From an uncultured bacterium (GTDB lineage Bacteria; Desulfobacterota; JADFVX01), in the NCBI GenBank assembly GCA_965372635.1, contig CBDVDA010000001.1, positions 2,860 through 66,859 of the forward strand: a DNA stretch of 64,000 bases, in the 5' to 3' direction. This document shows positions 5,887-63,860 of the stretch, piece by piece (within the stretch, counting starts at the first letter, position 1; each line of letters opens with the position of its first letter). Both the position numbers and the translations under genes were made by a program. Below the pieces are notes generated by a model. It saw nothing but the letters and a program-made list of their open reading frames with translations, was not told the DNA's origin and did not search any database.

Positions 5887-5986
5887 GTCGATGCAAATGA
5901 TAGAAAATGTTAATGGAGAGTTTCTTAACTATATTAAAAATTTATATGCGTCGTCAATCTAATTAACTTGTCTGGTTTCTCCATTT

Positions 5987-6069
5987 TAATCCCTAGCGGG
6001 TGCAATTCCCCGTAGCTTGCTACGACACAAAATAAATTACTCCAGTTCATACCCCGTTAGCTGCAATTG
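5987..6069 (+). repeat. Copy 1 of a roughly 85-nt conserved structured intergenic repeat (TTAATCCCTAGCGGGTGCAATTCCCCGTAGCTTGCTACGAYACAAAATAAATTACTCCAGTTCATACCCCGT...)
   Basis: Over 90% identical to copies at 26781-26868 and 60444-60530. Contains the small hairpins CGGG-TGCAATTC-CCCG and GTAGC-TT-GCTAC. The 3' part of this copy is degenerate. Confidence 0.7.
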
Positions 6070-6115
6070 TTTTTATTGAATTACCGCTCTCCTTTGGCGT
6101 AGAATTCAGGCTATC

Positions 6116-8094: not shown

Positions 8095-9606
8095 TTACTT
8101 GCCTGTTAACAACGACAGTGCCAGATTTCCCGCCGTGCTCGTCGTTCTATCGGGAATTTTTGCCAAGGCAGGCGTTTTCACGCCCTTATTTTTTATCCGC
8201 ACCTTGAACTCTTCCTGAGAGCAGCCGAACTCTTTCAGAAGCTGGCCGAATTCCTCCTTTGCCCGCTCCCGCGCTTCATGAAGCTTCATCTGTATGCGGC
8301 TCTTCACATTTACTTCGCCATCCCCCGATGTCTCAATGGGGATAAAAAGCCCCTCCTTATAATCGGAGAGTACCTTGACCTGCACGCCGTCACTCTGCGT
8401 GCTCGGCATGCAGCCGAAAGGTTTTACGGATATCACGAGGTGGGCCTTCTTCTTTTTTATCATGAGGAGGTTTTTGGCAATTTCAATGTGTCCCTCCCCT
8501 CCTGCTATGCGGGTATTATAATAGACGCCTCCAAGCTTCGCCAACTCAGACTGTGAGGGGAGCCGTTTCGGGACAAATCCGAGAGCGCCGCGGTAGCAAG
8601 TATGATAGAAATGAAAAATCAGGTTTACCGACCGGAGACGCAGGAAGCCGGAAAGATACCACCATCGTTTTTTTATTCCCCTGGCAGTCCCCATTCTCTC
8701 TTTAAGATATTCCTCCCACCACCAGATCGTATAGTCTATCCAGCTGCTCACCGGCGCCACCATCACCTCGCATCCCTCCTTCTCCAGCCAGGATGCAAGA
8801 TTATAATTGCCGTCCCCTTCCGTCGTCTGCGCCCAGAACTCGCCGATCATCTTCACCCTGGGCCTTACCTCTGAATAATCGACCTTCACCCGGCCCATTA
8901 TCTGCCTGGCCTGCCTTAGCGCCATGAAAATGGAGCGCCCTTCCCTAAAGGCGATATAGAGACAATCGAATGCCTCTTTCACAGCCGCTTCCGTTGCCCC
9001 TGTCTCTATCTCGTAGGGACGTATTTTATATTTTATCTCATTTATCAGGTCGGCGGCGATGATCCCTTTTCCCAAGGCAACGTAGAAGTCTTTATCCTGC
9101 TTCAACCCCGATTTTTCATCCTTATTCACGTCACCCGATTGGTTGATAATAAGGACCCGAAAACGCCCGAAGCCGGCATCTATAAGGGCTTTGCGATATT
9201 CCGCCTCATACATTCCCATACGACAAGGTCCACAGGCGCCGATGGTGAGAAAGAGATAGCGGTCTTCAATATCTTTTTCGCCGGATGCCTTCAGGCGCTG
9301 GAGATAGCGGATAAGGTTGCCCACTGTATAGTAGGTGGGGTTGCACTGCCCCCGGTTTCCGTATTCCTTTCCGATGGCGAGTGCTTCGTTATCGGGCGTA
9401 GGGAGGTAGTCCGCCTTATGTCCCAGCCCTTCGAGCACGCCTTTGAGAATGATCTCGTGGCCCGGCGTTAGGCCGCCGAAAAGGATGGTGACCTTCTCTT
9501 TTTCATGGGCAAGAAAGGGGCGTTCCTCCGCTTTCCTGTAATGGGTGATTTCGGCCCCTTTTAAGGCTTGCGAGTTCTTAATTCCTGATGGGAGTCTCTT
9601 CTCCAT
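8095..9606 (-). CDS. Acyl-CoA dehydratase-related protein (HgdB/DUF2229-like), partner of the upstream fused activase
   Basis: 503 aa with a cysteine-containing dehydratase-component-like layout. Its start codon is 1 nt from the stop of the 1110-aa activase fusion. Confidence 0.6.
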   Translation of the reverse strand: MEKRLPSGIKNSQALKGAEITHYRKAEERPFLAHEKEKVTILFGGLTPGHEIILKGVLEGLGHKADYLPTPDNEALAIGKEYGNRGQCNPTYYTVGNLIRYLQRLKASGEKDIEDRYLFLTIGACGPCRMGMYEAEYRKALIDAGFGRFRVLIINQSGDVNKDEKSGLKQDKDFYVALGKGIIAADLINEIKYKIRPYEIETGATEAAVKEAFDCLYIAFREGRSIFMALRQARQIMGRVKVDYSEVRPRVKMIGEFWAQTTEGDGNYNLASWLEKEGCEVMVAPVSSWIDYTIWWWEEYLKERMGTARGIKKRWWYLSGFLRLRSVNLIFHFYHTCYRGALGFVPKRLPSQSELAKLGGVYYNTRIAGGEGHIEIAKNLLMIKKKKAHLVISVKPFGCMPSTQSDGVQVKVLSDYKEGLFIPIETSGDGEVNVKSRIQMKLHEARERAKEEFGQLLKEFGCSQEEFKVRIKNKGVKTPALAKIPDRTTSTAGNLALSLLTGK

Positions 9607-15804: not shown

Positions 15805-15893
15805 ATTTTTATTGTAGGGGCGGCCCTTGTGTCCGCCCTTTTTGCCAGCATTTAAAGGGCAACCACGAGGGTTTGCCCCTACGCAGACATTCC
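15805..15893. repeat. REP-like composite palindromic element, copy A. GTAGGGGC...GCCC-TTTTT terminator-like hairpin, then GGGCAAC..TTGCCC hairpin, then CTACG.
   Basis: Same family as 17069-17212 and 19147-19365. The ORF-track start at 15827 falls inside this repeat. Confidence 0.7.
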
Positions 15894-15955
15894 ATCAAAT
15901 AAGCGAGGGGGCAACCTATTTCATTCCATTACATCTTATCTCAAAAGATAAAATT

Positions 15956-17026
15956 ATGATTGATGGCAAAAACAGAGACATAAAAAGAAAGGCTTTTTTC
16001 TGCAAAAAAATATTAACCCAGGCGATGTTTGTTACTTTTATTGCCTTACTTCACCTGTCTCTGTCGCCGCTAATAGCTTTTTCATTTGAAACAAATCCTT
16101 CAAAACAAAATCAACCTCTTGAAATAAACCGGGAGGAAAAGAAACAGGGAGTCTTTAAAAGAACCTTTGGTTTGATAGAAACCTTTCAGGAAAATTTTTC
16201 GAAAGGCATAACGTCTACGGGTGATAAAATAGACACATTTTTTGGAGGTGAGAGGGTTATCCAGGAGTCAAACGGGAGTTTTGTTCGGTTGAGACTGGGC
16301 ACTGTTTACGCCAGGGGAGGAGAAGTTTTTTTTGAAAGAGACATAAAGCTGAAAATTGCAATCCCGAAGACTAAGGACAGACTTAAGCTGATGATAGGAG
16401 ATGAACCTGAAGATGAAAACAGGGAGTTTAAAAACTTATCCGACACTTTGGATTCATCTACGGTAAAGGAAGAATCTGTTGGCCTTGGGTACATTCTTAA
16501 GGCTAAAAAAGCTTTGAATATAAGCGTCAGTGCCGGGGCAAGATATCATAACGGGGTAGACTACTATTCAAAGGTGAGGAGCAGAAAATCTTTTTATCCT
16601 GGAAAGTGGGAACTCAGGATATCAGAAATACCATTTTGGACACGGTTCAGAGGATACGGGGCAACAACGGGAATCGATTTTGAGCGGAAGCTGGGTGAAA
16701 ACCTGTTTTTCAGGGCTTCCAGCAGCGCTACCTGGCATGACGATACGGAGGCCTACGAGCTTGCTCAAAACCTTACTCTGTTTCAGCAGTTAAGCAACCG
16801 GAACATGATGGCTTACAACGTCGGCGCCTTCGGGGGAAGAAGCGGCGGCGTGACTTACGTCACGGAATATGCCGCTTCGATTATTTTCAGGAGAAACATC
16901 TATAAGAACTGGCTTTTTGGGGAAATTCAGCCAAGGGCTCTGTTCCAGAAGAGTGATGGCTTTGATCTTTACCCCTCCATAACGGCAAGACTGGAAGTGG
17001 TTTTCGGAAAACCATCAGGGAAATAA
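15956..17026 (+). CDS. Hypothetical secreted beta-rich protein (possible outer-membrane beta-barrel), low GC
   Basis: Start moved downstream of the REP element to MIDGKNRD or to the signal-peptide-like MFVTFIALLHLSLSPLIAFS. Alternating hydrophobic pattern and AT-rich composition. Flanked by REP-like repeats on both sides. Confidence 0.55.
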   Translation: MIDGKNRDIKRKAFFCKKILTQAMFVTFIALLHLSLSPLIAFSFETNPSKQNQPLEINREEKKQGVFKRTFGLIETFQENFSKGITSTGDKIDTFFGGERVIQESNGSFVRLRLGTVYARGGEVFFERDIKLKIAIPKTKDRLKLMIGDEPEDENREFKNLSDTLDSSTVKEESVGLGYILKAKKALNISVSAGARYHNGVDYYSKVRSRKSFYPGKWELRISEIPFWTRFRGYGATTGIDFERKLGENLFFRASSSATWHDDTEAYELAQNLTLFQQLSNRNMMAYNVGAFGGRSGGVTYVTEYAASIIFRRNIYKNWLFGEIQPRALFQKSDGFDLYPSITARLEVVFGKPSGK

Positions 17027-17068: not shown

Positions 17069-17212
17069 ATTTATTGTAGGGGCGCACCCATGTGTGCGCC
17101 CTTTTTTGCCAGTATTTGGGCAGACACGCGGGTCTGCCCCTACGCAAGATTTTTTGTGTAGAGGCGGCCCTTTTCGATACTTAACAGGGCAACCACAAGG
17201 GATTGCCCCTAC
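17069..17212. repeat. REP-like palindromic elements, copy B (about 1.5-2 units) between convergent genes
   Basis: GTAGGGGCGCACCCATGTGTGCGCCCTTTTTTGCCAGTATTTGGGCAGACACGCGGGTCTGCCCCTACG plus a second partial unit. The first hairpin followed by T6 looks like a bidirectional terminator. Confidence 0.7.
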
Positions 17213-19001: not shown

Positions 19002-19146
19002 TCCTTCTCCTTTCTCATTAAACGATATAGATTAATTCTACTAGAGAATGTGCAGATAAGCAAAAAAGGAGAAGAGAGGGGATGGAGGAGGATATGTAGA
19101 GGCTTGGCCTGCCAAGCCCTCAACGTAGATGCCATCAGACAATCAT

Positions 19147-19365
19147 GGGCAAGGCAGGCCATTGCCCCTACGAGTTTATCCGGTTAATATCTCGTTTGTT
19201 TTGTAGGGGCGTCACCCATGTGTGCGCCCATCTTTGCAATATTTCAAGGGCAGATACACGGGTCTGCCCCTACGAGTTCATCCGGTTAACAATACGTTTA
19301 TTTTATTGTAGGGGCGGCCCTTGTGGCCGCCTTTTTCGGTACCTGTCAGGGCAACCACTGTAGCA
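19147..19365. repeat. Tandem REP-like palindromic elements, copy C (about 2.5 units, period about 105 nt)
   Basis: Repeated ...CCCCTACGAGTT(T/C)ATCCGGTTAA...TTGTAGGGGCG..CCC...GGGCA....TGCCCCTAC. The ORF-track peptides in this region are translations of the repeat. Confidence 0.7.
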
Positions 19366-26780: not shown

Positions 26781-26868
26781 TTAAATCCCTAGCGGGTGCA
26801 ATTCCCCGTAGCTTGCTACGATACAAAATAAATTACTCCAGTTCATACCCCGTCAGCTTGCTGCGGGG
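26781..26868 (+). repeat. Copy 2 of the roughly 85-nt conserved structured intergenic repeat
   Basis: TTAAATCCCTAGCGGGTGCAATTCCCCGTAGCTTGCTACGATACAAAATAAATTACTCCAGTTCATACCCCGTCAGCTTGCTGCGGGG. The 3' hairpin is CCCCG-TCAGCTTGCTG-CGGGG. Confidence 0.7.
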
Positions 26869-26960
26869 TGGTTGATCGCGGGACACGTCCCACAATCCCC
26901 CTTTGTAAAGAGGCTCATAACGCCCCCGCCCCCTCTTAATTCTTGAGAGGGGGAAACAAA

Positions 26961-29783
26961 TCACCCCTTCTCCAGCACCCCTCTTAGATACTCCCCCGTG
27001 TAAGAACGCTTGTTCTTCGCCACCTCTTCGGGTGTCCCCTCGGCGACTATCTCGCCTCCCCGGTCGCCCCCCTCGGGACCGAGATCGACGATATGGTCGG
27101 AGGTCTTGATTACGTCCAGGTTATGCTCGATGATGATGATGGTGTTGCCGCCGTCGGCGAGCCGGTTCAGTACGTCGAGGAGCTTTTGTATGTCGGCGAA
27201 GTGGAGGCCCGTCGTCGGTTCGTCGAGGATGTAGAGCGTCTTCCCCGTGCTCCGTTTGGAGAGTTCTTTAGAGAGCTTGATCCGCTGCGCCTCGCCGCCC
27301 GATAAGGTCGTCGCCGCCTGACCGAGCTGGATATAGCCGAGGCCCACCTCGTTCAGCGTTTCCAGCTTTTTAAAGACCACGGGGATGTTCCTGAAGAATT
27401 CGAGCGCCTCGCTCACGGTCATCTCCAAAACATCAGCGATGTTCTTTCCTTTGTAGCGGATTTCCAGCGTCTCCCGGTTGTAGCGGTGTCCCCTACAGAT
27501 TTCGCACTGTACGTAAATGTCGGGGAGGAAGTGCATCTCGATCTTGATGATGCCGTCGCCCGAGCAGGCCTCGCAGCGCCCTCCCTTTACGTTGAAGGAA
27601 AAACGGCCCGGCTTGTAGCCCCGCGCCTTCGCTTCGGGCACCTGTGCGTAGAGTTCGCGGATGGGGGTGAAGAGCCCCGTGTAGGTGGCCGGGTTGGAAC
27701 GGGGGGTCCGCCCGATGGGGGACTGGTCGATGTCGATCACCTTATCCACCTCTTCGAGACCTTTGATTTCCTTCACCGGCTCCGCCTTTTCCCGTGAGCG
27801 GTAGAGTTTTTGGGCCAACGCCTTGTAGAGGGTGTCGATGACGAGCGTCGATTTTCCCGACCCGGAAACGCCGGTGACGGAGGTGATTTTCCCGAGGGGA
27901 AAGGAGACGGTCACCTCTTTCAGATTGTGCCCCGTCGCCTTGCTGAGTGTGAGTACGCCGCCCGTTCCTGTCCGCCGCGTCTTCGGCACAGCGATCCTTT
28001 TTTTCCCCGTCATATACTGTCCCGTGAGTGACGCTTCAGAGGCCATGATCTCTTCCGGCGTCCCTTCGGCCACTATCTCGCCGCCGTGAACCCCTGCCCC
28101 CGGCCCCATGTCTATTACGTGGTCCGCTTCCAGGATCGTCTCCTCGTCGTGCTCCACGACGAGCACCGTGTTGCCGATATCCCGGAGCCGCTTCAGCGTC
28201 TCGATGAGGCGGGCGTTGTCCCGCTGGTGGAGGCCGATGGAGGGCTCGTCCAGGATGTAGAGGACGCCAACAAGCGACGAACCGATCTGCGTGGCGAGGC
28301 GTATCCGTTGCCCCTCGCCGCCGGAAAGCGTGGCCGAGGTTCGATCCATTGTCAAATAATCGAGCCCCACGTTGATGAGGAAGGCGAGCCGTTCGGCGAT
28401 CTCCTTGAGGATGCGCCGTGCAATCTCCCCCTCTTTTTCGGTGAGGTTCAGGTCATGGAAAAAATGGGACGCCTCGGTGATGGAAAAGCGGGTCACGTCG
28501 TAAATGGTGAGGCCGGAGATGGTAATGCTCAGGCTCTCCTTTTTGAGGCGTGCGCCATCACACTCGGGGCAGGGCTGGATGTTCATGAAGCGCTCCATCT
28601 CTTCCCGCGCCGCGTCGGACTCCGTTTCGAGATAGCGCCGGTTGAGGTTGGCGATCACCCCTTCGAAGGGGCGCTTGTAGAAATGACGCCGGTCATCCTT
28701 TTCGTAAAAGAAGTTGATATCCTCACCATCGGAGCCGTTCATGAGAATATCCTTGGTTTTGCCTGAGAGCTTTTTATAAGGGGTATAGATGTCGAAACCG
28801 TAGTGGTTCGAGAGCGCCTCCAGCATCTGGTGGTAGTATAGGGAACTCTTTCTTTCCCAAGGGGCGATGGCCCCTTCGCGGATGGAGAGGGTGTCGTTCG
28901 GTACGATGAGGGCAGGGTCTAAAAAGCGCTTCGTGCCGAGGCCGTCGCAGATGGGGCAGGCGCCGTAAGGGTTGTTGAAGGAAAACATGCGGGGCGTGAT
29001 CTCGGGGTAGCTGATGTTGCAATCAATGCAGGCGAAGCGCTCGGAGAATGTCTCACTTTTACCGTCTATCTCGTCTATCTGGATGAGGCCGTCGGCAAGT
29101 TTGAGCGCTGTCTCGATGGAGTCGGCGAGGCGCGTCTTTATATCTTTTTTAATTACCAGCCGGTCTACGACGATCTCTATGGTATGCTTCTTCTTCTTGT
29201 CGAGATTATGCTCGTCGGCCAGTTCCACCATTTCGCCGTCGATGCGGGCACGGACAAACCCCTCCTTCCGGAAGCGGTCCAGTTCCTTTTTATACTCTCC
29301 CTTCCTCCCCCTTACAACGGGGGCGAGCACCATGATCTTCGTTTTTTCCGGTCGTTCCATGATGTGGTCCACCATCTGCGAAATCGTCTGGGAGACGATC
29401 TCGTTGCCGCATTTGTAGCAGTGGGGGTGGCCCACGCGGGCGAAGAGGAGGCGGAGATAGTCGTATATCTCCGTAACGGTCCCCACTGTGGAGCGGGGGT
29501 TCCGCGAGGTCGTCTTCTGCTCGATGGAGATGGCGGGTGAGAGGCCGTCGATGGAATCGACATCGGGTTTCTCCATCTGCTCCAAAAACTGCCGCGCATA
29601 GGCGGAGAGGGACTCCACGTAGCGCCGCTGCCCCTCAGCGTAGATGGTGTCGAAGGCAAGAGACGATTTGCCCGATCCCGACAGGCCGGTGATGACCACC
29701 AGCTTGTCCCTCGGGATTTCGAGGGTGATCTCCTTCAGGTTGTGTTCCCGGGCGCCCCGGACGATGATGTTTTTTTCAGCCAA
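26961..29783 (-). CDS. uvrA: Excinuclease ABC subunit A
   Basis: Two ABC ATPase modules ([18 protein letters not shown]), zinc-finger cysteines and LSGGE signatures. Probable TTG start at 29783 ([17 protein letters not shown]) with an AGGGG RBS. The ORF-track ATG at 29960 would add an atypical 59-aa extension. Confidence 0.88.
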
Positions 29784-59443: not shown

Positions 59444-60424
59444 TCAGTCTTTCCCGGCTGTGGCGAGGATGATGTCGCGCAGCGCCTCTATGAAGGCAGT
59501 TCCGGAGTTCAGAGACGCCACCCGCTCGAACCGCTCTATTCCGGCACTTTCCGCCAGTTCTTTATAGAGAATATCCATTTCATAGAGCGTCTCCGAGTGG
59601 TCGGAGACGAAGGAGATGGGAACCATAAGTAAATTTTTGGTCCCTTCCCGTCCGAGCGCTTCGATGGAAAGATCCGTCGCAGGTTCTAACCACTTCACAG
59701 GTCCCACCCGGCTTTGGTAGGTGAGAGACCACTCCCCTTTCCACTTCAGCCGTTCAACGATAAGCCTCACCGTTTCTTCCGTCTCGTCCCGGTAGGGGTC
59801 TCCCCGCTCCACCCTTTTTACAGGGATACCGTGGGCCGAGAAGATGAGGTGCGGCGTGTTGTTACCGCAGGATTTCAGCGACTCTTCGATGTTTGCGGTC
59901 CAGGCGTCGATGTAGCCTTTGTGGTCGTGCCAGTCCCTGATATCCAGGATTTCAGTGCCGCTGGCTTCGCCAGTTTTCTTCCAGACCCGGTGGAATTCAT
60001 TGATGCTGGAGCCGCTTGTGGTTGCCGAGTACTGGGGGTAAAGAGGGAGCAGAATCACCCGGTTCGGCTTGGCAGCCAGAACTTTTTTTACCGTTTCCTC
60101 CGTAAAAGGGTGCCAGTAGCGCATTGCCACGTAGGTGCTGAAGTTGCCGGAGTCAGCCAGCGCCCTCTCAAGCGCCGCCGCCTGATCGAGAGTGAGCTTA
60201 AGCAGCGGGGACCCGCCGCCGATCTTTTCGTAGTATCCTCTCACCTTAGCGGACCGCTTTCCTGCAATCTTCCTTGCTATAAAGGGCCTTAGAAATCTTC
60301 CAACGAGAGGGATCTCGATAATGTCGGGGTCCATAAAGAGGTTATAGAGAAAGGGCTCCACATCGTTCAGCGTGGAGGGGCCTCCCATGTTCAAAAGGAC
60401 GACTGCTGTTTTTTTATTACTCAT
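59444..60424 (-). CDS. hemH: Ferrochelatase
   Basis: N-terminus VVLLNMGGPSTLNDVEPFLYNLFMD. 326 aa. Collinear with bacterial HemH. Confidence 0.88.
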   Translation of the reverse strand: MSNKKTAVVLLNMGGPSTLNDVEPFLYNLFMDPDIIEIPLVGRFLRPFIARKIAGKRSAKVRGYYEKIGGGSPLLKLTLDQAAALERALADSGNFSTYVAMRYWHPFTEETVKKVLAAKPNRVILLPLYPQYSATTSGSSINEFHRVWKKTGEASGTEILDIRDWHDHKGYIDAWTANIEESLKSCGNNTPHLIFSAHGIPVKRVERGDPYRDETEETVRLIVERLKWKGEWSLTYQSRVGPVKWLEPATDLSIEALGREGTKNLLMVPISFVSDHSETLYEMDILYKELAESAGIERFERVASLNSGTAFIEALRDIILATAGKD

Positions 60425-60443
60425 CTTAAGTTGTTTGGCTCCG

Positions 60444-60530
60444 TTTAATCCCTGGCGGGTGCAAATCCCCGTAGCTCGCTACGATACAAAATAAATTATC
60501 CCAGTTCATACCCCGTCAGCTTGCTGCGGA
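60444..60530 (+). repeat. Copy 3 of the roughly 85-nt conserved structured intergenic repeat
   Basis: TTTAATCCCTGGCGGGTGCAAATCCCCGTAGCTCGCTACGATACAAAATAAATTATCCCAGTTCATACCCCGTCAGCTTGCTGCGGA. Begins 20 nt from the hemH start codon. Confidence 0.7.
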
Positions 60531-60903
60531 GTAGTTAATTTAATCGTTGAAAATCTTGCCCTATGAACGAGGTTAGAATTAAAAGGCTTTGCCCTGAGAA
60601 TTCATACTTTTCTTTGACGGCCAAAGAAAAAGTATGCAAAAGAAAGGCCGCCCACAACTTTGGCCTTCGGCTTCCCTCGTTCACGCATCTGATTGCGGCG
60701 GGGACAAAAACTCGCTTCGCTCAAACAATTTGTCCCCTTTTTCCGCATTCATTTGCATCACTCGGCTTCATTGAATGGGAAATGAAAAGACTGGTAAACC
60801 CTTTTAGGGCAAAGCAAGGTCACGCCCTCTGGGCGTGACTTCTTTATGATAAATTGCCATTGTCGGCATGTCAATCTAATCGAAGAGGTGTGGAGATAAA
60901 AAG

Positions 60904-63585: not shown

Positions 63586-63860
63586 TTTAAAATTCCCGGC
63601 AGAGACCCCAATGCAGTTGCATTGGGTAGGCGTATTCTACCATCCCCGATTTTGAGATCATAGCTTTAAGATAACCAACAAGAGGGCGGGGTGAAATTGT
63701 CGCCGAGGGGACACCCGAAGAGGTGGCAAAGAACAAGCGTTCCTACACGGGGGAGTATATAAGAGGGGTGTTGGAGAAAGGGAGAGTTGTTCCCCCACTT
63801 AATTAAGAGGAGACAGTATTAGAAAAGCAGGTGCTCCGTCTTGCAGTCGAGGTGCATCTC

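Follow-up and report, generated by a model that had tools for sequence, protein, structure and literature searches.

Three intergenic repeats of an uncultured bacterium as probable ends-only derivatives of an IS200-type element

Three similar intergenic repeats lie in the window, by which we mean the whole 64-kb stretch of DNA from an uncultured bacterium that was analyzed here. They are very probably gene-less derivatives of an IS200/IS605-type element, in which a left end (LE) part of about 45 nt has been fused to a right end (RE) part of about 45 nt, and from which the transposase gene tnpA is gone. Ends-only elements of this sort are known as palindrome-associated transposable elements (PATEs) or, more loosely, as MITEs. 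The left half of the repeat is homologous to the left end, and the right half, including a hairpin with a bulged T, to the right end of elements that encode a Y1/HUH TnpA. Because the same two ends bracket tnpA in two elements on cyanobacterial plasmids (L031 and L030, see below), the repeat can be read as the LE and RE of an IS200-type element minus the gene. This identity accounts for the hairpins, for the motif in the flank and for the constant order of the left and right halves. The repeats belong to the junk DNA of bacteria, in a known and fairly ordinary form, rather than to the small RNA genes, and the window itself implies no new biology. The case matters for annotation hygiene, as repeats of this type could wrongly be annotated as the structured small RNAs that they resemble. 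The lineage to which the repeats belong appears to be new within a well-known kind, since in a literature search we found no paper that names it.

The copies (Table 1) were first noted in a sequence-only reading of the window, which placed them in intergenic DNA on the same strand, and this placement held. Repeat search of the window delimits the family to 5985-6080, 26781-26876 and 60444-60539. Two different sub-patterns of 28-31 nt, with up to three mismatches allowed, each match exactly three places in the window (5998/6027, 26794/26823 and 60457/60486, all on the + strand), and neither has a match in dinucleotide-preserving shuffles of the window (n = 100). The high conservation reported earlier is likewise borne out over the shared block of 72 nt, with 70/72 identical positions between copies 1 and 2, 65/72 between copies 1 and 3, and 67/72 between copies 2 and 3 (90-97%); over their full length, copies 2 and 3 agree at 82/90 positions. 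Inspection of the sequence also confirmed the proposed consensus and its 6-bp hairpin CGTAGC-T(T/C)-GCTACG, with the variable base in the loop, as well as the longer 3' hairpin CCCCG-T-CAGC-TT-GCTG-CGG(G/A)G of copies 2 and 3. In copy 1, the likeness to the other copies stops after AGCT, and the 3' arm of the longer hairpin is missing. Motif and hairpin scans found no fourth copy in the 64-kb window.

Table 1. Positions of the three repeat copies and their parts in the window. The exact left and right boundaries of the copies are uncertain by 1-2 nt.
Copy	Feature	Position	Strand	Basis or remark
1	Flank pentamer TTAAT	5986..5990	+	Presumed target / left cleavage motif; fits family motif T-N-A-A-Y
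1	Probable ends-only element, right end truncated	5991..6063	+	Sequence; 70/72 identity to copy 2
1	LE linker CCCTAGCGGGTGC	5' part of 5991..6063	+	
1	Guide AATT	6004-6007	+	
1	LE hairpin CGTAGC-TT-GCTACG	6011-6024	+	
1	RE guide CATA	6048-6051	+	
1	RE 5' arm CCCCG-T-TAGC	6052-6061	+	3' arm and tip missing
2	Flank pentamer TAAAT	26782..26786	+	Departs from T-T-A-A-T
2	Most complete copy, 90 nt	26787..26876	+	Sequence, LE and RE alignments, pair counts
2	LE linker	26787-26799	+	
2	Guide AATT	26800-26803	+	
2	CCC	26804-26806	+	
2	LE hairpin	26807-26820	+	
2	AT-rich spacer	26821-26843	+	
2	RE guide CATA	26844-26847	+	
2	RE hairpin CCCCG-T-CAGC-TT-GCTG-CGGGG	26848-26868	+	Bulged T at 26853
2	RE tip TGGTTGAT	26869-26876	+	
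3	Flank pentamer TTAAT	60445..60449	+	Sequence
3	Copy of about 91 nt	60450..60540	+	
3	Guide variant AAAT (in place of AATT)	60463-60466	+	
3	LE hairpin CGTAGC-TC-GCTACG	60470-60483	+	
3	RE guide CATA	60507-60510	+	
3	RE hairpin	60511-60531	+	Bulged T at 60516; C.A mismatch from G->A at 60530
3	RE tip TAGTTAATT	60532-60540	+	

The minus-strand genes next to the copies encode a prepilin-type N_methyl protein (copy 1), a cNMP_binding protein (copy 2) and ferrochelatase (hemH, copy 3). Both these neighbors and their variable distance had been described correctly: the gaps to the start codons are about 99, 194 and 20 nt for copies 1, 2 and 3, respectively, where the 20-nt gap counts from the family start at 60444, and the left end of copy 3 itself, read on the minus strand, precedes the ferrochelatase ATG by 25 nt. 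Copy 2 is also located just past the uvrA stop codon, and copy 3 sits between a gene for a PD-(D/E)XK nuclease and hemH. The common orientation of the copies, from which the sequence-only reading had drawn conclusions, is a weak basis for them, since three of three copies fall on one strand by chance with a probability of 0.25.

The copies have no terminal inverted repeats. When the first 25 nt were compared with the reverse complement of the last 25 nt, 6/25 and 7/25 positions agreed, which is the chance level. A target-site duplication is absent at copy 2 (...ATTAAAT on one side, CGCGGG on the other) and at the related metagenomic copy L018 (...AGGCT on one side, TTTTCG on the other); at copy 3, TAAT occurs on either side (...TTTAAT and TAATCG), which is ambiguous and not so in the others. 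With a length of about 73-91 nt, the copies have no coding capacity, and none of them is overlapped by an ORF of 60 aa or more. The LE hairpin begins 20 nt from the start of the element, and the RE hairpin stops 8-9 nt before its end. Because there are neither terminal inverted repeats nor target duplications, and because the distance to the palindrome is longer at the 5' than at the 3' end, the repeats fall under the definition of PATEs (PMC3119063). Among the three interpretations offered by the sequence-only reading, the mobile miniature element is the one that stands, as the halves are homologous to the ends of Y1-transposase elements, but it is of a specific kind, namely an ends-only element of the IS200/IS605 family without terminal inverted repeats; small RNA and cis-regulatory RNA found no support. 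A classical MITE, which bears terminal inverted repeats and depends on a DDE transposase, was considered and is ruled out by the lack of inverted repeats and target-site duplications. Nezha was rejected as a possible relative, since it has terminal inverted repeats and DRs (PMC3184786).

Homologous ends of a related branch occur in other genomes. When one genome per GTDB species was scanned for an exact pattern with 21 specified bases of the 5' half, 15 loci were returned, in MAGs of Nitrospirota, Thermodesulfobacteriota, 'Deltaproteobacteria' and Ignavibacteriales. At 14 of these, the motif is the left end, TTTAAC followed by (T/A)TGCAATT-CCCCGTAGCTTGCTACGGGG (L010 has TTAAC); the fifteenth (L007) is doubtful, with a TTGAAC flank and a variant hairpin. 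Nine loci have a second hairpin ...ATACCCCGCAGCTTGCTGCGGGG-AGGTTCATT (also written ...ATACCCCGCAGCTTGCTGCGGGGAGGTTCATT) after 50-150 nt, and this hairpin resembles the repeat of the window in its 3' half. This second hairpin was absent from the query pattern, yet it was recovered beside it. At L009, both ends bracket an ORF of 122 aa that belongs to PF01797, Y1_Tnp (E = 3.8e-30), and matches the TnpAs of ISDra2 (2xm3, E = 1e-15) and IS608 (2a6m, E = 2e-8). Three more loci carry the same transposase start, cut off by contig ends.

The closest ends were found on cyanobacterial plasmids. A blastn search with copy 2 against the plasmids of PLSDB led to Acaryochloris marina pREB3, and an unannotated, gene-less family of about 115 nt is present at 33 places on 15 plasmids of Acaryochloris, Kovacikia and Pseudanabaena (L023-L029). 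Its design is that of the window repeat: a linker that contains GGG, then ATTCCC and an LE stem of 6 bp, a stretch rich in A, (C/T)ATA with an RE stem of 9 bp behind it in which one base is bulged, and finally the tail (C/T)AGTTNATT. In Acaryochloris, an annotated 'hypothetical protein' overlaps one related copy. Searching by tblastn with the L009 TnpA identified tnpA-bearing elements on the same plasmids, and two of them have these very ends: L031 on Kovacikia minuta pA (NZ_CP083583), with LE CTTTAATCCCTGGCGGGTCAATTCCTCGCCGCTCTGCGGCGTAAAATGCAGGG-ATG and RE GATACCCCGTCCGCTTGCGGCGGGGTAGTTCATT, and L030 on Acaryochloris marina pREB3 (NC_009928), which is annotated as IS200/IS605 family tnpA. Their TnpAs have 147-148 aa and match PF01797 at about 1e-38. 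Overall, tnpA lies between the same two ends in L031, L030, L009 and L032, with Pfam Y1_Tnp E-values from 1e-38 to 4e-30.

L031 and L030 share with the window repeat the left end, the linker, the position of the guide and the 6-bp stem, and their right ends have the common form (G/C)ATA-CCCCG-T-CNGC-TT-GNCG-CGGGG-TAGTTNATT. The stems differ from those of the window by compensatory changes only. In contrast to the window copies, which encode no TnpA, L031 and L030 carry the PF01797 protein, their tip/guide bases are G-C instead of C-G, and they reside in hosts of another phylum. At the left end of L031, the initial 17 nt, TTTAATCCCTGGCGGGT, agree with copy 3 at 17/17 positions; in copy 3, this 17-mer spans the flank motif and the start of the element. 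The lineage has been found in Cyanobacteria, Nitrospirota, Thermodesulfobacteriota, Ignavibacteriales, Nitrosomonas and the present host, and because the ends in the window are closest to ends on cyanobacterial plasmids, the data suggest that this IS200 lineage moves between phyla.

A metagenome scan with the left end of the window-specific subtype gave one true extra copy (L018), located on a 3-kb contig and 97% identical to copy 2, and two chance matches in coding DNA. L018 is the sole copy of this subtype that the scan found outside the window, and the sequence to its left, AGGCT, departs from the target motif. The left-end pattern had 0 matches in a scan of viral contigs. The host UvrA is closest to that of 'Proteobacteria bacterium' MAGs (77-80%), with Desulfuromonas and Geobacter at 71-72%. 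In the closest relatives (HemH 78%, UvrA 80% identical), no element lies beside hemH or uvrA. The intergenic DNA of these relatives is unalignable, synteny is broken and the gene downstream of uvrA differs, so that the loci do not represent clean empty sites, and no empty site was seen among all the loci gathered for comparison. An apparent remnant upstream of hemH in L019, GGGATAAACG, was discarded, as it scores no better than shuffles.

Comparison across the family shows that both hairpins are selected as structures. In the alignment of 12 LE hairpins, 95.8% of the cells pair, and there are double changes at pair 9-19 (CG in eight, UA in three) and at pair 10-18 (UA in five, AU in three, CG in three). 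In the alignment of 11 RE hairpins, 92.9% of the cells pair, pair 11-18 is UA in five sequences, AU in three and CG in two, and sliding the partners lowers the pairing to 36-68%. The covariation score was reached by 0/500 shuffles for the LE and by 1/500 for the RE, figures that are supportive but not formal probabilities, since the shuffle controls keep relatedness and the sequences were hand-picked. The other clade, distinct from the window/cyanobacterial one, has two further compensatory changes in the RE hairpin. Moreover, the inner stems of the LE and RE hairpins change in parallel within each lineage, which is what one TnpA recognizing both ends predicts. The covariation for which the sequence-only reading had proposed a test is present, in the form of compensatory changes in both hairpins. 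The folding z-scores stand out in just one of the three copies.

A second kind of covariation connects the hairpins with the borders of the element. On the left, the second base of the flank T-N-A-A-Y pairs with the first base of N'ATT, 5' of the LE hairpin, as T-A, C-G or G-C; on the right, the partners are the N that opens the RE guide NATA and the N' within the tip TT-N'-ATT, combined as G-C, C-G, A-T or T-A. The lineage offers a series of naturally covarying sequences, in which each of the four Watson-Crick combinations occurs on the right and three occur on the left. Both ends obey the rule in 4/4 of the elements that bear tnpA. In the window, copies 1 and 3 keep the left rule (in copy 1, the N of TTAAT pairs with the LE guide base) and copy 2 keeps the right one; the rule is broken on the left of copy 2, where TAAAT has no Watson-Crick match with the LE guide, and on the right of copy 3. 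Several gene-less copies in other genomes also break it, which is expected of decaying copies and weakens the statistics. By analogy, the flank/guide and tip/guide covariation is probably the guide/cleavage-site logic of IS608-type elements; it has no rationale at the level of RNA. Biochemically, guide/cleavage-site pairing is established only for IS608 and ISDra2; in the window family, it appears as Watson-Crick covariation.

Other features of IS608 can be compared directly. Its site CL (TTAC, outside the element, where the window family has T-N-A-A-Y) lies 19 nt 5' of IPL and its site CR 10 nt 3' of IPR, the sites are recognized through a tetranucleotide located 5' of the foot of each hairpin (AAAG for GL), and TnpA contacts an extra-helical T (PMC3201880). 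The window repeat matches both this geometry, with 19-20 nt on the left and 8-9 nt on the right, and the extra-helical T, with the bulged T of its RE hairpin. By analogy with IS608, the pentamer at 5986..5990 is presumed to lie outside copy 1. IS608 of Helicobacter pylori and ISDra2 of Deinococcus radiodurans, the mechanistic paradigms of the IS200/IS605 family, have their right cleavage site about 9-10 nt 3' of the right hairpin. As in these two, the subterminal hairpins are on one (top) strand, and the TnpAs of both elements are homologous to those of the window repeat's relatives, as judged by the 2xm3 (1e-15) and 2a6m (2e-8) matches. There are also differences. IS608 and ISDra2 carry tnpB as well, whereas the relatives of the window repeat have tnpA only; the motif of ISDra2 is TTGAT; and in the window/cyanobacterial clade, unlike in IS608 and ISDra2, the left hairpin has 6 bp and no bulge, and the small GGG...CCC helix that precedes it encloses the guide.

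Together, these likenesses suggest a model for the movement of the repeats, which builds on homology with IS608 and ISDra2. A dimer of Y1/HUH TnpA, supplied in trans, would bind both subterminal DNA hairpins, which would form on the single-stranded top strand, i.e. the + strand of the window. TnpA would make two cuts. The left cut would fall 3' of the pentamer T-N-A-A-Y in the flank, with about 19-20 nt between it and the left hairpin that follows; the right cut would fall 3' of the tip ...TT-N-ATT, at a distance of 8-9 nt beyond the right hairpin. Each cleavage site would be read via base pairing with the short guide directly 5' of its hairpin. The top strand would then be excised as a single-stranded circle and could re-insert 3' of another T-N-A-A-Y without target duplication. 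By this analogy, we infer 'peel-and-paste' single-strand transposition by a trans-acting TnpA, with the + strand of the window as the active top strand. The three copies would then have arrived by transposition, and a matching TnpA presumably exists or existed in this genome; tblastn with IS200-type TnpA detected no tnpA in the 64-kb window. In the IS200/IS605 family, the top strand is preferentially on the lagging-strand template (PMC5027513). The top strand is + in 3/3 copies, and the positive GC skew over 12-60 kb would place the + strand on the lagging-strand template, although GC skew tracks gene orientation, the window has no origin or terminus marker, and n = 3 with the chance of 0.25 given above.

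No copy conforms to the family rules in full, and the copies may therefore be decaying relics. Copy 1 has lost the 3' arm and the tip of its RE, copy 2 has the flank TAAAT instead of TTAAT, and copy 3 combines a C.A mismatch in the RE stem, a tip/guide mismatch and an LE guide AAAT for AATT. That the copies are old, poorly mobile relics and that they are still mobilizable appear to us about equally probable. Signs of decay were also suspected in the left stem, which is short at 6 bp, and in the bulge of the right stem, but this idea was rejected because the tnpA-bearing cyanobacterial elements share the design. The two features are the native design of the window/cyanobacterial clade.

Elements of the same general type have been described before. 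PATEs are ends-only, transposase-free derivatives of IS200/IS605 elements, known from Haloquadratum walsbyi (PMC3119063), Geobacillus stearothermophilus (PMC10055086) and Halanaerobium hydrogeniformans (PMC7290912), and they include 'terminal-only' versions of about 50-270 bp. Like the window repeat, they lack terminal inverted repeats and target duplications and are too short to code, their near-terminal palindromes are homologous to those of transposase-bearing elements, the distance from the start to the 5' palindrome exceeds that from the 3' palindrome to the end, and there is a conserved motif of 4-5 nt in the 5' flank. However, the PATEs described so far derive mostly from IS605/IS1341-type elements, often contain TnpB remnants or omega-RNA, and stem from archaea and Firmicutes, whereas the window repeat derives from a tnpA-only IS200-type element, has only ~90 nt, resides in an uncultured bacterium and has its nearest sequence relatives on cyanobacterial plasmids.

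Readings other than an ends-only element have to be weighed against these data. The repeats are conserved, intergenic and hairpin-forming, as would be expected if they were small ncRNA genes or a cis-regulatory RNA leader made from one strand, with the hairpins acting as terminator or protein-binding stem-loops. Copy 2 indeed folds better than shuffles, and copy 3, which is placed between a strong promoter-like site on the minus strand (60874-60846) and the hemH start codon, 20 nt ahead of the latter, could be part of the hemH leader. In Salmonella, IS200 ends reportedly give rise to regulatory RNAs. Nevertheless, we consider an RNA gene or leader very unlikely. The Rfam search proposed in the sequence-only reading gave, with Rfam 15, 0 matches at the gathering threshold in the whole window and, around copy 2 at E <= 10, only chance-level ones, none overlapping the element. 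No sigma-70-like promoter or intrinsic-terminator consensus is found inside any copy, and a reading of the element as a sigma-54 or sigma-70 promoter was rejected too, since neither inspection by eye nor a scan revealed a consistent site inside the copies. On the + strand, the folding z-scores are -0.4, -2.8 and -1.0, with copies 1 and 3 no better than shuffles on either strand, and copy 1 does not even have the 3' arm of the second hairpin. The distances to the start codons vary (20, 99 and 194 nt), a promoter-like site lies between element and gene at copies 1 and 2, the neighboring genes are functionally unrelated, and the closest relatives (hemH 78%, uvrA 80% identical) lack the element beside those genes. 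Most importantly, the flank/guide and tip/guide covariation is meaningful for the transposition of single-stranded DNA and not for RNA, and the same ends bracket a transposase gene elsewhere. A bolder variant, according to which the host has co-opted at least one copy as RNA, especially copy 3 at hemH, or small regulatory RNAs have arisen from the family, is improbable, though slightly less so. Improbable too, as a separate matter, is a fairly recent exchange of the transposon lineage between Cyanobacteria and this host, at which the 17/17 identity of the left end hints. If co-option were true, copy 3 would put two stable stem-loops into the hemH leader and tune haem synthesis.

The position of all three copies 5' of minus-strand genes, in one orientation, could also speak for a shared protein-binding DNA site, i.e. 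an operator or promoter module upstream of these genes, but this is the least credible of the alternatives, to be taken as next to impossible. The pilin-like, cNMP-binding and ferrochelatase genes are without evident common regulation, their start codons are 20-194 nt away, promoter scans give nothing at a fixed position in the element, blocks of 90 nt at 90-97% identity are far longer than operators, and blocks homologous to them are found in several phyla, where the contexts are unrelated. A further alternative is that of REP/BIME-type extragenic palindromes, which would have been spread by a RAYT rather than by an IS200-type TnpA. Like the window repeat, REPs are hairpins that are short, intergenic and rich in G+C, with TnpA-related Y1/HUH enzymes as their presumed movers, and REPs and IS200/IS605 hairpins are known to be related (PMC3333891). 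In addition, the LE stem of the window repeat contains GTAG, and L018, the only extra window-type copy, is 2 kb away from a gene for a Y1_Tnp protein of 238 aa, a RAYT-like length. Yet REPs are single palindromes of 20-40 bp with an unpaired GTAG/CGTC tag, they usually form inverted pairs, mostly head-to-head/tail-to-tail dimers with head-to-tail ones rare or absent, and RAYT genes have REP copies in inverted orientation at their sides (PMC3733652, PMC3184786). By contrast, the window repeat is an ordered LE/RE pair of two different hairpins in fixed direct arrangement, with a left linker of 19-20 nt and a right one of 8-9 nt, and its GTAG is inside the stem, not an unpaired tag. The same pair of ends brackets an IS200-type tnpA of 122-148 aa in LE-to-RE order elsewhere, no similar hairpin flanks the RAYT-like gene near L018, and tblastn with its protein found no RAYT-like gene in the window. 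A REP/BIME origin is hence even a shade less probable than an RNA gene, and derivation from the two ends of an IS200-type element remains the reading that we prefer. The window does have a REP-like family of its own, which is unrelated in sequence to the ~90-nt repeats: at 15.8-19.4 kb, there are separate GTAG-tagged hairpins in inverted pairs, and these look like true REPs.

The window contains an inverted duplication of the 3' end of uvrA, whose two members are 36.6 kb apart and 88% complementary over 112 nt; blastn aligns about 125 nt, at 87%. The duplicated unit consists of the final ~100 nt of uvrA, the stop codon and the hairpin immediately 3' of it. In two relatives (UvrA 80% identical), the gene downstream of uvrA codes for a T2SSE ATPase; in the window, it codes for a cNMP-binding protein. 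The segment between 27 and 63.7 kb may have been inverted, with the pair left as a scar. If such an inversion postdates the insertion of the three ~90-nt plus-strand repeats (copies 1 to 3), then copy 3 would originally have been opposite in orientation to copies 1 and 2.

Copies 1 and 3 have weakly similar left flanks (TTAACTTGTCTGGTTTCTCCATTTTAAT and TTAAGTTGTTTGGCTCCGTTTAAT, respectively), with a local score of 19, compared to 14 for unrelated flank pairs. The similar stretch at copy 3 includes the ribosome-binding site and start codon of hemH. The likeness could be due to chance, or the segment common to the two copies could be slightly longer.

A second repeat family in the window, unrelated to copies 1 to 3, consists of G+C-rich hairpins in inverted pairs with GTAG/CTAC tags (TGTAGGGGCG..CGCCC and GGGCA..TGCCCCTAC), which look like classical GTAG-type REP/BIME elements. 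The pairs flank genes for a CitMHS transporter, a CBS-domain protein and a RES-domain protein, as well as a 399-aa ORF, in a stretch of lower G+C content (0.47). Neither this ORF nor a 503-aa ORF elsewhere in the window has a Pfam match at E <= 0.001.

Coordinates of the features in the window and in other genomes
Feature	Location	Strand or orientation	Remarks
uvrA 3'-end duplication	window 26950-27061 and 63685-63810	opposite	
Similar left flanks, copies 1 and 3	window 5956-5985 and 60418-60444		
REP-like repeat family	window 15807-15882, 17070-17212, 19100-19360	inverted hairpin pairs	
503-aa ORF	window 8095-9606	minus	
399-aa ORF	window 15827-17026	plus	
Y1_Tnp protein gene	L018 2250-2966	minus	238 aa, RAYT-like length; PF01797, E = 2e-12
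IS200-type ends-only element	L023 1420-1545 (Acaryochloris marina pREB3, NC_009928 178268-178393)		~115 nt
Longer gene-less element	L003 2654-2787		~135 nt
Shorter gene-less element	L008 5335-5420		~85 nt
Lone right-end-like hairpin	L005 1700-1740		CCCCGCAGTTTGCTTCGGGGAATTTGATT
Gene-less elements with palindromic cargo	L002 3860-3990; L006 6020-6150	L006, minus	other clade

The sole other contig with a window-type copy (L018, from a metagenome) also carries a Y1_Tnp gene; the copy and this gene are ~2 kb apart, with a Fic-domain gene between them. Within the contig, no similar hairpins flank the Y1_Tnp gene.

Gene-less elements, composed of joined left and right ends, also occur in other genomes. 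In one Nitrospirota MAG, the L008 element is a shorter version of the L003 element, and the core that it lacks has CCGCAG(G/C)TTGCT at both its borders. This loss looks like the repeat-mediated core deletion known in PATEs (PMC3119063). At L005, a complete gene-less element is followed, 95 nt downstream, by a lone right-end-like hairpin, which could be either a solo end or what is left of a tandem insertion. In two elements of the other clade (L002 and L006), the cargo is a palindromic repeat of another kind, with many CCCTCCCC/GGGGAGGG motifs (…CCCTCCCCCTTGATGGGGGAGGTTAGGTGGGGGTGA…); these two elements therefore represent one repeat family nested in another.

The ~115-nt ends-only family occurs at the pREB3 site and at 32 further places, in 15 cyanobacterial plasmids, whose records carry no annotation for it. 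The right end of one copy is overlapped by a pREB3 "hypothetical protein" CDS (AM1_RS42625), which may be a spurious call.
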